DNA from: Bacteroidaceae bacterium
GTDB lineage: Bacteria; Verrucomicrobiota; Verrucomicrobiia; Opitutales; UBA953
Direction: 5' to 3'
Assembly (NCBI GenBank): GCA_963620895.1
Contig: CAVFCB010000001.1
Span: 1 to 63,675, forward strand
Length of the DNA: 63,675 bases
Within the stretch, counting starts at the first letter, position 1. Every line of letters begins with the position of its first letter. The translations under genes were made by a program, and so were the position numbers. Positions 1-63,585 of this stretch are shown piece after piece. The notes beneath the pieces are model-generated. The model was not told where the DNA came from and ran no database searches. It saw only the letters and a program-made list of their open reading frames with translations.

Positions 1-268
1 CCCACGCTCACGCGTGGGGTTACGATAGTTTCGCCTCTACGAGGCTTTTAGTTTCATCAATTTTTGCCTGCGGCAAAAATCCGGACTTCACCAGTTCTCC
101 AGTTTCTAGTCCACCAGTCCACCGGTTCGCCGTTCCCGCGCGGAGACGTGGACGTCTCCGCCCCCAGTGTCGCCTCTACGAGGCTCTTAGTTACTTTCAT
201 TTTTGCCTGCGGCAAAAATCCGGACTTCACCAGTTAACCAGTTCTCCAGCCCACCAGTCCACCAGTTT
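1..268. repeat. REP-like intergenic repeat cluster with two ~95-bp imperfect direct copies (31-125, 170-268)
   Basis: Both copies contain TCGCCTCTACGAGGCT, the hairpin TTTTTGCCTGCGGCAAAAA, CCGGACTTCACCAGTT and 7-bp CCACCAG/CTCCAGT units. Extra hairpins are CCCACGCTCACGCGTGGG (1-18) and GCGGAGACGTGGACGTCTCCGC (140-161). Confidence 0.75.
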
Positions 269-269
269 C

Positions 270-1712
270 CTACTTTTCCCACGGAAGGTGCACGGGAACG
301 GGCTCAAAATCCCAGATATTGAACGGCTCGAAAATTTTTCCGCGTCCGAGAATATTTTTCGGATCGAGCGCATTTTTCACGGCGCGCATCGCGGCGATTT
401 CCGCCGGCGTGTGCTGAATTGCGAGAAACGGCGACTTCGCGAGTCCGATGCCGTGCTCGCCGGTAATTACGCCGCCGAGCGCGACGACGGTTTCCATCAC
501 GCGCCGAATTGCCGTTTGTGCGGTTTCGCGTTCCCGCGCGTCGGCGCGATGATACATCACGTGAACGTGCAGATTGCCGTCGGCGGCGTGACCGAAAATC
601 GGCGTCGCGAGTCCTGTTTCCGCCGTGATTTTTCGCATTGCGTCGAGCAACGGAATGAAATTTTTCGCGGGAACGACGATATCTTCGTTCAGCTTGGAAT
701 CGGCGAGCAAAAACATCGCCTGCGAACAGGTGCGGCGCACTTCCCAAAGCGTTTCCGCCTCGGCGGCGTTTGCCGTTTCACGAAATTCGCAAGCGCGGGA
801 ACGCGCCCATGCGCGCATGCGCTCCGCCTGCGCGGGAACGCTCCGCGCGTCGCCGTCCGCCTCGACAAGCAGCACGGCGGATTTTTTTTCGAAAAACTTT
901 TTTCCCGCATACGTTTCCGCGCAATCCACGGAAAGCGCGTCCATAAATTCGCAGACGGACGGCACGATGCGTTCCCGCAAAAGCTCCGCCGCCGCGCGCA
1001 GTGCCGAAGCATCGTCCGCAAACGCGCAGAGAAACGTGTGGCGCGCTTCCGGCAACGGCACAAGGCGCAGCGTCGCGCGCGTGACGACGCCGAGCGTGCC
1101 TTCCGAGCCGATCCAAAGATCGCGCATGTTGTAGCCGCTGACGAATTTTTTCACGTTCCCGCCCCAACGCACTTTTTCGCCCGTAGGCAAAAATCCTTCG
1201 AGCGCGAGCACGTAGTCGCGCGTGACGCCGTATTTTGCGGCGCGCAAACCGCCGGCGTTCGTCGCGATGTTCCCGCCGATCGTGCAATGTTTCACGCTCG
1301 CGGGATCGGGCGGATAAAAAAGCCCGAACGGCGCCGCCGCCTCGCTGATTTTCGCGGTGACGACGCCGGGCTCAACCGTTGCCGTCGCCGCATCGGGATC
1401 GATTTCGCACCGCGTGCGCTTCGCGAAAGAAATTACCCAACCGCCGCAAACGGGCGTTCCCGCGCCGACCGTTCCCGTTCCCGCGCCGCGCACGGTGACG
1501 GGAACGCCGTGCGCATTGGCAAGGCGCAACGTTGCGCCGACATCCTCGTCGCGCGCGGGGAAAATGACGGCGGCGGGCGGGAACGCGATTTTCGTGTTGT
1601 CGAAAGAAGCGGCGAAACGCGATGCTTCGTCCGTGCGCACGACATCTCCGCCGAGCGCGGCGACGAGCGCCTGCGTCGCGTCCGCGAAAGGATTTTCAGT
1701 CTTTTTCCGCAT
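270..1712 (-). CDS. FAD-linked oxidase (GlcD/D-lactate dehydrogenase family)
   Basis: Motifs RGAGTG, PDPAS..CTIGGNIATNAGG, GSEGTLG, GHAADGNLH and TGEHGIG. Start placed at MRKKTENP, which overlaps the rbfA stop region. Confidence 0.9.
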   Translation of the reverse strand: MRKKTENPFADATQALVAALGGDVVRTDEASRFAASFDNTKIAFPPAAVIFPARDEDVGATLRLANAHGVPVTVRGAGTGTVGAGTPVCGGWVISFAKRTRCEIDPDAATATVEPGVVTAKISEAAAPFGLFYPPDPASVKHCTIGGNIATNAGGLRAAKYGVTRDYVLALEGFLPTGEKVRWGGNVKKFVSGYNMRDLWIGSEGTLGVVTRATLRLVPLPEARHTFLCAFADDASALRAAAELLRERIVPSVCEFMDALSVDCAETYAGKKFFEKKSAVLLVEADGDARSVPAQAERMRAWARSRACEFRETANAAEAETLWEVRRTCSQAMFLLADSKLNEDIVVPAKNFIPLLDAMRKITAETGLATPIFGHAADGNLHVHVMYHRADARERETAQTAIRRVMETVVALGGVITGEHGIGLAKSPFLAIQHTPAEIAAMRAVKNALDPKNILGRGKIFEPFNIWDFEPVPVHLPWEK

Positions 1713-2076
1713 TGCCGTAGCGGGCGTCGCGGGCGGCATCTTCGGCGGCGATTTCGTCGAGCCGATTCAGCAAAGAAACGCCCTCTTCCGCTCCGCGATC
1801 CTCGACGAAACGATAGGCGGGCGTGTATTTCAAAATGACGCGCTTGGCGACTTCCATGCGCAGGGTTTTCGTCACGCGATCGAGCAAACGGCGCGCGGCG
1901 GCTTTATCGTCGTTCCCGCCGAGCACGGCGTAAAAAATCCGCGCATCGCGCAAGTCCGTGGAAATTTCGACGGCGGTTATCGTGATGCGCACGCTCTCGC
2001 TCCGCCAACGCGAATGCAGTTGATCGCTGATTTCGTGGCGAAGCAGTTCGTTGATGCGCGTGGTGCGTTGAGACAT
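1696..2076 (-). CDS. rbfA: Ribosome-binding factor A
   Basis: 126 aa; RTTRINELLRHEIS, ITITAVEISTDLRDARIFY and LKYTPAYRFVED match the RbfA pattern. Confidence 0.93.
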   Translation of the reverse strand: MSQRTTRINELLRHEISDQLHSRWRSESVRITITAVEISTDLRDARIFYAVLGGNDDKAAARRLLDRVTKTLRMEVAKRVILKYTPAYRFVEDRGAEEGVSLLNRLDEIAAEDAARDARYGNAEKD

Positions 2077-62530: not shown

Positions 62531-62560
62531 TTTTCTGCGAAGAAAGGAGAGATTTCCGCC

Positions 62561-63526
62561 ATGCCCGAAATTTCCGTTTCGGCAATTTTCACGGCGCTCG
62601 TTCCCATCGCGATTACGATTGCCGTCGGGTATTTTTTCCGCCGAAAAAACTGGGTGGATCAAACCGTTCAGGCGGGACTGATGCGCCTTGTCATTTGGGT
62701 TTTCACGCCCGCGCTCATCGTCAACCGCGTTCTCGACAATTCGTTGCTGAAAGATTTTTCCGTCGCGTGGAAAGTCGTCGCGGCAGGTTTTTTAAGCGCA
62801 ACGCTCGGAATGATTATCGCCTTGCTCTGCGCACGATTTTTCGGAATTGACGACGCGAAGCGCCGCCGTGCGTTCGGCTACTGCTGCGGCGTGTACAATT
62901 ACGGCTACATCGCGTTGCCCATCTGCATGTCGCTTTGCCCGAAAGAAACCGTCGGGCTGATGCTGCTCTTCAATTCCAGCATCGACGTCGCGATTTGGAC
63001 GGTCGGCGTTGCGATCGTGAACGGGAGCGTTCGTCCGGCGGATCTCGCGAAATCCGTTGTGAATCCGATCTTTTTTTCGATGATTCTCTGCCTCGCGTGC
63101 AATTTCACCGGGATTTCGGGACACGCGCCGAAATGGGTTTTCGACGCGGCGGGAAGTCTCGGCGCCTGCATGATTCCTATCGGAATTCTGCTTGTCGGCA
63201 TGTCGTTGCCCGTGCTGATGAACGGCTTTCGCCTGTGCGACGAACCCGCCGTTTCCGTCGGCGCGCTCATAATGCGGTTGCTTCTCATTCCCGCGCTGAT
63301 GACCGCCGCCGCGCTCTTCGTTCCCGCGCTCCCGCAAGATCTTCGCTACGTGCTCATCATTCAGTCCGGAATGCCCGCGGCGATGATTTCCATCGTCATT
63401 CTGCAATACTACGGCGGGGACGCGCGACTCGCTCTGCGCGTGGTGCTTTCGACGTCCGTCGTCTGCATCGCGACTCTGCCCGCTTGGATAAAAACGGGAT
63501 TTTGGCTTCTCGAAAAAATCCGGTAA
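62561..63526 (+). CDS. AEC-family (auxin efflux carrier) transporter
   Basis: VFTPALI, NYGYIALP, VVNPIF, RLLLIP and GMPAA. Confidence 0.9.
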   Translation: MPEISVSAIFTALVPIAITIAVGYFFRRKNWVDQTVQAGLMRLVIWVFTPALIVNRVLDNSLLKDFSVAWKVVAAGFLSATLGMIIALLCARFFGIDDAKRRRAFGYCCGVYNYGYIALPICMSLCPKETVGLMLLFNSSIDVAIWTVGVAIVNGSVRPADLAKSVVNPIFFSMILCLACNFTGISGHAPKWVFDAAGSLGACMIPIGILLVGMSLPVLMNGFRLCDEPAVSVGALIMRLLLIPALMTAAALFVPALPQDLRYVLIIQSGMPAAMISIVILQYYGGDARLALRVVLSTSVVCIATLPAWIKTGFWLLEKIR

Positions 63527-63585
63527 TTTTTTTGCTTGCGTCGTTCCCGCAAAAAGATTTTGATTCGCCTCACGTTTTTTCCATT

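Follow-up and report, generated by a model that had tools for sequence, protein, structure and literature searches.

A dense, asymmetric 8-base word in genomes of gut Opitutales as a possible self-DNA uptake signal

What puts, and keeps, one short word every few hundred bases throughout a bacterial genome? The question is raised by a 63,675-base stretch of DNA (hereafter the window, meaning that whole stretch), which forms the start (63.7 kb) of contig C1 of a 1,863,495-base assembly (G000; 181 contigs, 57% G+C, 98.6% complete) from the Opitutales (Verrucomicrobiota). The original prediction, made from the letters of the window, held that the 9-mer GCGGGAACG and its reverse complement CGTTCCCGC saturate positions 131 to 63550, and that this word could be either an independently evolved DNA uptake signal or an iterated, methylation-linked motif resembling the cyanobacterial highly iterated palindrome HIP1. 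Sequence-specific uptake that leaves an imprint on the whole genome is known from two families, both Proteobacteria, namely the Neisseriaceae with their DNA uptake sequence (DUS, GCCGTCTGAA) and the Pasteurellaceae with their uptake signal sequence (USS, AAGTGCGGT), and the origin of such signals is debated between molecular drive and selection for self-DNA. Here we report the anatomy of the word, its restriction to one genus, the conservation of its sites, its probable decay in two lineages, its independence from the methyltransferases that we searched for and the presence of most uptake genes, and we weigh what kind of system might have written it.

An 8-base core underlies the dispersed word

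Exact counting bore out the predicted dispersal. The window holds 193 copies of GCGGGAACG/CGTTCCCGC, spread over both strands (96 +, 97 −), the first at 131–139 and the last at 63542–63550, with 24 in the first 5 kb, where a hand count had given about 23. The predicted expectation of about one copy holds under a base-composition model only; 100 dinucleotide-preserving shuffles of the window gave a mean of 3.32 copies (standard deviation 1.90, maximum 8), which makes the enrichment 58-fold, where more than 100-fold had been suggested. The observation proved stronger than predicted, and its sharper unit is the 8-mer core CGGGAACG rather than the 9-mer. The motif field (131..63550, both strands) contains 267 cores (133 +, 134 −; 37 of them fully intergenic), among which the 9-mer accounts for 193, the 10-mer CGCGGGAACG for 116 and the 11-mer CGCGGGAACGC for 55. 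Genome-wide, both strands together carry 7,777 copies of CGGGAACG, 5,334 of GCGGGAACG, 3,178 of CGCGGGAACG and 1,645 of CGCGGGAACGC, and the most frequent 8-, 9-, 10- and 11-mers of the genome are all forms of this one word. The core thus recurs once per 240 bp of the 1.86-Mb genome (4,173 per Mb) and, at 8 bases each, makes up 3.3% of it, a share that is also about 3% in most of the genus.

The word is asymmetric and no palindrome, its reverse complement being CGTTCCCG, and it is sharply bounded. C precedes 97% of the GGGAACG words in the genome, and the 24 single-mismatch variants of the core have between 9 and 1,232 copies each, 6 to 860 times fewer than the core itself. Positions 1, 2 and 5 (C, G and A) are the strictest, with at most 223 copies of any variant, and positions 3, 4 and 6 the loosest. 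An extended logo, one of the checks originally suggested, returned the core with weak flanks: over 7,746 copies, information is found solely at −2 (C 52%), −1 (G 69%) and +1 (C 50%), for a usual extended form cGCGGGAACGc (c-G-core-c). Because flank information is nil beyond 2 nt, the word stands alone and belongs to no longer repeat, repetitive extragenic palindrome (REP), miniature inverted-repeat transposable element (MITE) or mobile element. A REP or MITE would show a conserved unit of at least 20 nt, mainly between genes, whereas conservation here stops at the 2-nt flank and 80% of the copies lie within genes, in line with the expectation that most would be intragenic.

Enrichment exceeds what composition and codon usage predict

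Markov models of orders 1, 2, 3 and 4 expect 250, 378, 974 and 2,382 copies of CGGGAACG, against the 7,777 observed; orders 5–6 are uninformative, being built from 6- and 7-mers of the word itself. Two gene callers were used for the coding regions. The first (codon log-odds) had 24 of 30 window genes correct by Pfam and mis-called some antisense shadow open reading frames (ORFs), for example across PilT/PilB; the second (a 3-periodic fourth-order Markov model; 1,394 genes, 87% coding) is the source of our frame counts. The codon-usage caller was misled by very long antisense shadow ORFs, two of which lie in the window: one of 1,172 aa at 26834–30352 (+) opposite a GH2 glycosidase gene, and one of 1,365 aa at 55854–59951 (+) opposite the PilM...secretin operon, where it runs across three genes.

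The enrichment survives codon-preserving shuffles, as the original prediction required of a real signal. Ten synonymous-codon shuffles, which fix the protein and the codon usage of each gene, gave a mean of 687 genic copies versus 6,092 observed (about 9-fold), with each of the six frames 3.8 to 17.7-fold above the shuffles, and a codon-order shuffle of the first gene set gave 202 copies versus 6,270 (31-fold). All frames are used, with 560, 1,964 and 971 copies in frames 1, 2 and 3 of the sense strand of genes and 398, 544 and 1,805 in those of the antisense strand, the commonest being those that encode xGT and xVPx. The remaining 1,528 copies are intergenic, at a density of 6.1 per kb compared with 3.9 per kb in genes. 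At least one copy is carried by 1,205 of the 1,394 genes and by 991 of the 1,034 that reach 600 bp, and the spread is even: 518 bins of 3 kb have a mean of 12.6 copies, only 2 of them are empty, and the longest motif-free gap is 3.7 kb.

Strand preference is nearly nil. The genome carries 3,878 copies on the + and 3,899 on the − strand, and the two largest contigs have strand ratios of 142:140 and 113:103. The per-contig ratios are over-dispersed (chi-square 467, 151 df), and the motif skew tracks gene orientation (rho 0.41) more closely than it tracks GC skew (rho 0.27), in keeping with a sense-strand preference of 56:44; neighbouring copies are direct in 4,193 cases and inverted in 3,406. 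A 495-kb contig of the congener G018 has 593 + and 716 − copies (45:55) over 400 kb with steadily negative GC skew, so the replichore polarity that had been named as a warning sign is seen in neither genome. On the same contig (C1 of G018), the 20-kb bins at 120–140, 220–240 and 320–340 kb are one-sided (10:41, 13:47 and 20:47), for which long genes with a frame preference might be the cause.

Inverted pairs and predicted terminators

The further suggestion that copies are paired in terminators holds for a subset. Adjacent inverted pairs within 40 nt number 546, of which 207 are fully intergenic, and so constitute a minority of the 7,777 copies. Intergenic pairs take the orientation CGTTCCCG-loop-CGGGAACG in 138 cases and the reverse in 69. 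Many pairs consist of an A-run, GCGTTCCCG, a short loop, CGGGAACGC and a T-run, as an intrinsic terminator working in both directions would, and motif density is 8.7 per kb in the spacers of convergent genes versus 5.1 per kb in those of divergent genes. On this layout, some of the intergenic inverted pairs, and indeed many, are predicted to serve as bidirectional terminators, and a subset of intergenic copies may have been co-opted as their stems.

The window offers several examples. The predicted bidirectional terminator at 52945..52980 (both strands), directly downstream of a secretin gene, comprises an A-run, GCGTTCCCG, a 4-nt loop, CGGGAACGC and a T-run, with its intergenic pair at 52953–52972; the segment 52940–52995 has a predicted fold of −31.8 kcal/mol on either strand (z −5.7 and −6.1), and none of 200 shuffles was as stable. 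A terminator-like hairpin at 31210..31247 (+), also intergenic, joins the pair CGTTCCCG ... CGGGAACG (31210–31240) to a run of seven Ts and folds at −30.8 kcal/mol (z −4.1). At 32185..32217 (−) an inverted pair forms a 13-pair stem followed by a T-run; among the 68 terminator-like sites of 30000–49999 it is listed first and has the longest stem. Two abutting motifs can also form a perfect 16-nt palindrome, CGTTCCCGCGGGAACG, as they do between genes at 44944..44959 (both strands), where the fold on its own is weak (−13.2 kcal/mol, z −1.4); the genome has 50 abutting pairs of this kind.

The word is restricted to one genus and its sites are conserved

All 19 genomes of the genus are enriched in the 9-mer, for which the reversed-word control gave 34–100 copies. 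Fifteen are motif-rich (3,060–5,581 copies) and four are motif-poor (340–760; three with about 750 and one with 340). In none of the 102 genomes from four sister genera of the family, and in none of the 12 from 12 other families of the order, does the 9-mer exceed its reversed-word control. Public records with the motif at full density are titled Candidatus Spyradosoma and uncultured Opitutales bacterium, in agreement with the placement in Verrucomicrobiota that had been assumed, and the literature on Spyradosoma is, by title and among the matches listed, taxonomic or survey work. The titles of two further full-density records, in which the 9-mer has 5,374 and 5,581 copies, name a Sphaerochaetaceae bacterium and an uncultured Enterobacteriaceae bacterium; given the Opitutales placement of the other motif-bearing records, these titles are probably mislabels.

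Relatives had been proposed as a place to look for dialects, and there the outcome is divided: the word was found throughout the genus, and dialects were not. In a 64%-G+C congener the word, its flanks and its tolerance profile are identical to those of G000, so no dialect is seen. Motif and flanks stay unchanged over the G+C range of the genus, which extends from 57% in G000 to 64% in the 400 kb of G018.

Individual sites also persist. With G000 as reference, we aligned at most 13 kb of orthologous DNA per genome and took other 8-mers in the same alignments as the control. At 89% DNA identity (G006), 86% of motif sites were kept (49/57) versus 48.5% of control 8-mers; at 83% identity (G013), 59% (19/32) versus 28%; and at 73% identity (G010), 60% (6/10) versus 13%. 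In the four motif-poor species, retention of the G000 sites was 0–30%, near the 21–28% of the control 8-mers. Gene order is poorly conserved in the genus, neighbouring window genes lying on different contigs in most congeners. The marker gene nuoF (19086..20459, −) provides an example of deep site conservation: in codon alignments of its conserved peptides DAGTRI and CDGNG, motif-rich species choose the synonymous codons that spell CGGGAACG, whereas the sister genera and the motif-poor species use other synonymous codons, often one base off. Motif sites are, as judged from these alignments, actively maintained in the motif-rich species.

Two lineages have probably lost the word

In a NuoF tree rooted with 11 sister-genus sequences, three of the motif-poor species (G001, G002 and G014) form a clade nested among motif-rich species, and the fourth (G015) falls elsewhere; the approximately unbiased (AU) test rejects both a tree that holds the rich species together (p 0.0018) and one that holds the poor species together (p 0.0009). 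An unrooted aminotransferase tree of 18 genomes, from which G013 is missing, places the same three species inside a clade of 100/100 support with six rich species, and the AU test again rejects a rich-poor split (p 0.009). These trees suggest that the motif was probably lost secondarily, in two lineages of the genus. Rich species on both sides of the clade share motif sites, which makes decay in the poor lineages the more economical explanation.

Across 119 kb sampled from G001, CGGGAACG is still the top 8-mer, at 1 per 1.5 kb, and we found no replacement word in that sample. Copies adjoining T-runs make up 13 of 77 there versus 455 of 7,777 in G000, which suggests that terminator copies outlast other copies in a decaying lineage. 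In an 87-kb sample of G015, CACCACCAACCC is abundant and CCACCAACC has 81 copies, versus 6 in all of G000 and 0 in the 119 kb of G001. We rejected CACCACCAACCC as a dialect of that species: it clusters at a spacing of about 18 nt, mostly near contig ends, and looks like local short repeat arrays that break the assembly.

Most of the uptake machinery is present, in rich and poor species alike

A search for competence genes, as originally advised, gave a mixed result. The G000 genome has a type IV pilus with a secretin and PilT, a PilB-PilT-PilB-PilC cluster, and genes for ComEC and DprA. Its prepilin-like genes number seven, of which four are clustered, and the N-terminal helix of two of the prepilins is similar to that of type IV pilins. 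Part of the machinery lies in the window, in a pilus-assembly operon on the − strand. There a PilM-like type IV pilus assembly protein of ATPase fold (58185..59933; 583 aa; PF11104, 58 bits) is followed by two genes of 337 and 392 aa without a Pfam match (55983..58178), which by position alone would occupy the usual PilN/O/P-like place, and by the last gene of the operon, a PilQ-like secretin of 965 aa (52999..55893; PF00263, 109 bits) that is the sole secretin found in the genome. The pilus ATPase cluster has, 1.6 kb upstream and amid housekeeping genes, a HigB-like toxin and helix-turn-helix antitoxin pair (contig C18:6886–7487).

What the genome did not yield is ComEA, for which PF12836 (HHH_3) and TIGR00426 gave a sole match, in one 774-aa gene (781-aa open frame) whose TIGR00426 match is below the cut-off; from its length we guess this gene, unconfirmed, to be Tex. 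A divergent ComEA is possible, in a genome that is nearly complete. Across the genus, ComEC and a PilB-PilT-PilC cluster occur in 19 of 19 genomes, the four-pilin cluster in all, and prepilin matches number 11 in the motif-poor species versus 7–11 in the motif-rich. Presence or absence of ComEC, of the ATPase cluster or of the four-pilin cluster, and prepilin count, were therefore rejected as the driver of the motif, being alike in rich and poor species.

No searched methyltransferase family tracks the word

The methyltransferases of G000 comprise one C5 enzyme, a split N6_N4 enzyme and HsdM-like genes; Vsr was not found in this genome. In a search of the 19 genus genomes, PF00145 was without a match in 8 motif-rich genomes, PF01555 in 3, PF02384 in 4 and PF02086 in 8, and all four families occur in motif-poor species. 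One 97%-complete genome in 20 contigs carries 5,084 copies, and all that it matched of the four families was a 41-position fragment. No family among these four, which are the extent of the search, tracks the motif.

Acquired DNA, phages and unrelated genomes

The motif-free gaps of G000, none longer than 3.7 kb, tend to be of unusual composition: 9 of the 20 longest have 42–51% G+C, below the 57% of the genome as a whole, and one such low-G+C gap contains a gene for a type I methylase. On contig C16, an island of 49–52% G+C (20100–23147) encodes the C5 methyltransferase together with a restriction endonuclease of the MspI family; its 3 kb contain a single motif copy, compared with 20 in the preceding 4 kb. 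The motif is thus probably missing from acquired DNA. The type enzyme of the MspI family recognises CCGG, and the position directly before the motif is seldom C (6% at −1), a bias by which CCGGG would be avoided.

Beyond the genus, an 18-nt palindrome, GCGTTCCCGCGGGAACGC, was sought in the genomes of 185,579 species and gave, among the matches listed, mostly single chance matches in high-GC genomes. It occurs several times per genome in records of Geodermatophilus, Blastococcus and Solirubrobacteraceae, again among the matches listed. Geodermatophilus was rejected as a bearer of the motif, as one genome with several palindromes had 86+86 copies of the 9-mer versus 74+53 of the control, and GCGTTCCCGCGGGAACGC looks like a separate palindromic repeat of high-GC Actinomycetota. 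In IMG/VR, two seeds (11 and at least 120 loci; for the second, 40 loci without flanks) yielded no motif-dense phage, none of the loci longer than 1 kb among the matches listed exceeding 0.5 copies per kb; the seeds occur once per 14–37 kb in the host, so that sensitivity is limited. A 614-nt viral contig with 4 copies was rejected as a motif-dense phage, being a local GTTCCC repeat cluster: its GTTCCC/GGGAAC repeats fall within about 150 nt and look like an array of iterons or operators that has nothing to do with the dispersed motif of the genome.

Likeness to known iterated words

Known uptake sequences occur at about 1 per kb, and those of the Neisseriaceae vary in dialect and are read by the minor pilin ComP. 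Like the DUS, CGGGAACG is a short non-palindromic word, found on both strands without polarity, in several gene frames and over-dense between genes; like it, too, the word forms inverted pairs (here predicted) as terminators, is restricted to a lineage, is shared at orthologous sites and resides in a genome with genes for a type IV pilus, secretin, PilT, ComEC and DprA. It differs in being unrelated in sequence, in belonging to another phylum and in its density, about 4 per kb versus roughly 1 per kb, as well as in the lack of dialects seen, of a ComP relative among the prepilins compared and of a ComEA match. The likeness to the USS extends to the same anatomy and to the analogous four-prepilin cluster of G000, with the USS receptor itself still uncertain; in contrast to the USS, CGGGAACG has a G+C-rich core, no AT-rich flanking tracts and a higher density.

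Published figures, cited here from the available portions of each source, allow a closer comparison. DNA uptake enhancing sequences (DUES), the class to which the DUS and USS belong, are non-palindromic, with 35–65% of copies intragenic, over-dense between genes, and about 10% of them are inverted repeats that serve as terminators (PMC1939737; bioRxiv 10.1101/2025.10.24.684340). The intragenic share is 35% for the DUS in N. gonorrhoeae and 65% for the USS in H. influenzae (PMC1939737), so that the 80% of CGGGAACG departs from the former and, in placing most copies in genes, agrees with the latter. DUES are read by minor pilins, although in Pasteurellaceae the minor pilin ComN is a predicted USS receptor, and they take up to ~2% of a chromosome, versus 3.3% here (bioRxiv 10.1101/2025.10.24.684340). 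The cyanobacterial HIP1, GCGATCGC, and the alternate HIPs resemble CGGGAACG in being octamers of very high density (500–2,500 sites per Mb) that can be lost in close relatives, and differ from it in being palindromes with a cognate methyltransferase (PMC4390886).

What kind of system wrote the word?

Three explanations account poorly for these data, and even their combined probability is slight. The word could be a by-product of codon or amino-acid usage, a dispersed repeat of REP or MITE kind, or nothing but terminator stems; some copies are indeed terminator stems, and the commonest frames are those of xGT and xVPx. Against this, the word stands well above both kinds of codon shuffle, no flank is conserved beyond 2 nt, most copies are in genes, intergenic inverted pairs are few among the total, and sister genera of similar composition are without the word, so that the shuffles and the flank logo refute the idea and leave it next to no probability. 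A polar chromosome signal guiding RecBCD/AddAB or FtsK, in the manner of Chi or of the FtsK-orienting and architecture-imparting polar sequences (KOPS/AIMS), would likewise be a short, asymmetric, G-rich octamer readable by a DNA-tracking machine, and the slight excess of direct neighbours and the over-dispersed contig ratios speak for it. Chi and KOPS, however, are strongly co-oriented with replication and far rarer than CGGGAACG, which is split 50:50 between the strands genome-wide, on the largest contigs and nearly so over the 400-kb single-replichore stretch of G018; the over-dispersion tracks gene orientation and is consistent with the sense preference. The absent polarity refutes this explanation, to which we give hardly any credence. 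The HIP1-like or methylation-linked alternative of the original prediction would have the word both produced and maintained by a methyltransferase-dependent mismatch-repair ratchet, after Elhai's model for cyanobacteria. It draws support from a density of the same order as that of HIPs or higher, from the gain and loss of HIPs between close relatives (PMC4390886, in the part available) and from the methyltransferases that G000 does possess. But the word is asymmetric, the sole C5 methyltransferase of G000 lies beside the MspI-family endonuclease in a low-GC island nearly devoid of the motif, in a genome where Vsr was not found, and each of the four families is without a match in 3 to 8 motif-rich genomes, yet present in poor species; none is co-extensive with the word. 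On the methyltransferase distribution and the asymmetry of the word we therefore set the model aside as largely refuted and very improbable.

Two readings deserve more weight. We propose, as the likeliest reading, that CGGGAACG is a self-DNA uptake signal working like the DUS or USS, a proposal in which our belief and our doubt are evenly matched. The type IV pilus uptake machinery would have a component, at the surface or in the periplasm, that preferentially binds the word; conspecific fragments that carry it would be taken up more often and recombine into the chromosome; and the bias would act as molecular drive, turning near-matches into perfect copies and keeping existing ones wherever coding allows. 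Every sequence-level property listed for such signals in the original prediction is present, and the interpretation stands in part, because ComEA was not found and the competence genes occur equally in the four motif-poor species. Several further points weigh on the same side: no examined gene, whether ComEC, the ATPase cluster, the four-pilin cluster or the prepilins, tracks the motif; competence genes are also common in control genomes of bacteria not known to be transformable; four of the seven prepilin-like proteins, compared with solved structures, matched only in the shared N-terminal pilin helix and gave no match to ComP; the density is 3–4 times that of known uptake sequences, and drive to such a level lacks precedent; the genus shows no dialects; and the secondary loss is deduced from two genes. 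Among the literature matches listed, none reports sequence-specific uptake in Verrucomicrobiota by title or abstract start, and among the full-text matches listed no paper names the word as a genomic motif, those found being primer or unrelated uses. As an alternative to an uptake signal, the word might be read inside the cell, by a sequence-specific protein of the cytoplasm. That protein could be nucleoid-associated, act in repair or recombination, or be a nuclease of defence or repair for which the word marks self-DNA; selection, or biased repair or gene conversion tied to the protein, would make and keep the copies, and its loss in two lineages would lead to decay. Such a reader fits the genus restriction, site conservation, nested decay, absence from acquired islands and even spread equally well. 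It would also account for the lack of a competence gene that distinguishes rich from poor species, and it has no need of ComEA. Yet we found no candidate protein, selection per site over 7,777 sites would be very weak (the classical argument for drive), the motif-poor species evidently manage without the word, and no dispersed, non-palindromic word this dense is known to us to play such a part; we regard an intracellular reader as possible but doubtful. In a more specific form, the word would be the footprint of a methylation-independent intracellular system that writes one asymmetric 8-mer per 240 bp as a mark of resident DNA and that was lost twice, with rapid decay. To our knowledge no known system writes such a mark with a non-palindromic word, and we consider this version unlikely. 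A small share of the probability we leave to mechanisms that have not occurred to us.

Implications

If the uptake-signal reading is true, the gut Opitutales would provide a third, independent case of sequence-specific uptake with a genome-wide imprint, at the highest density yet seen, and the first genomic hint of natural transformation in Verrucomicrobiota. Should the word prove not to be an uptake signal, some undescribed type of genome-wide system would lie behind it. In practice, the word is a near-perfect marker for binning these genomes and for spotting foreign DNA in them. The genus also has a natural experiment built in, with the word retained in 15 species, probably decayed in two nested lineages and never present in four sister genera. 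Comparative genomics should be able to use this contrast to find the receptor or driver, and the balance of drive and selection should become measurable.

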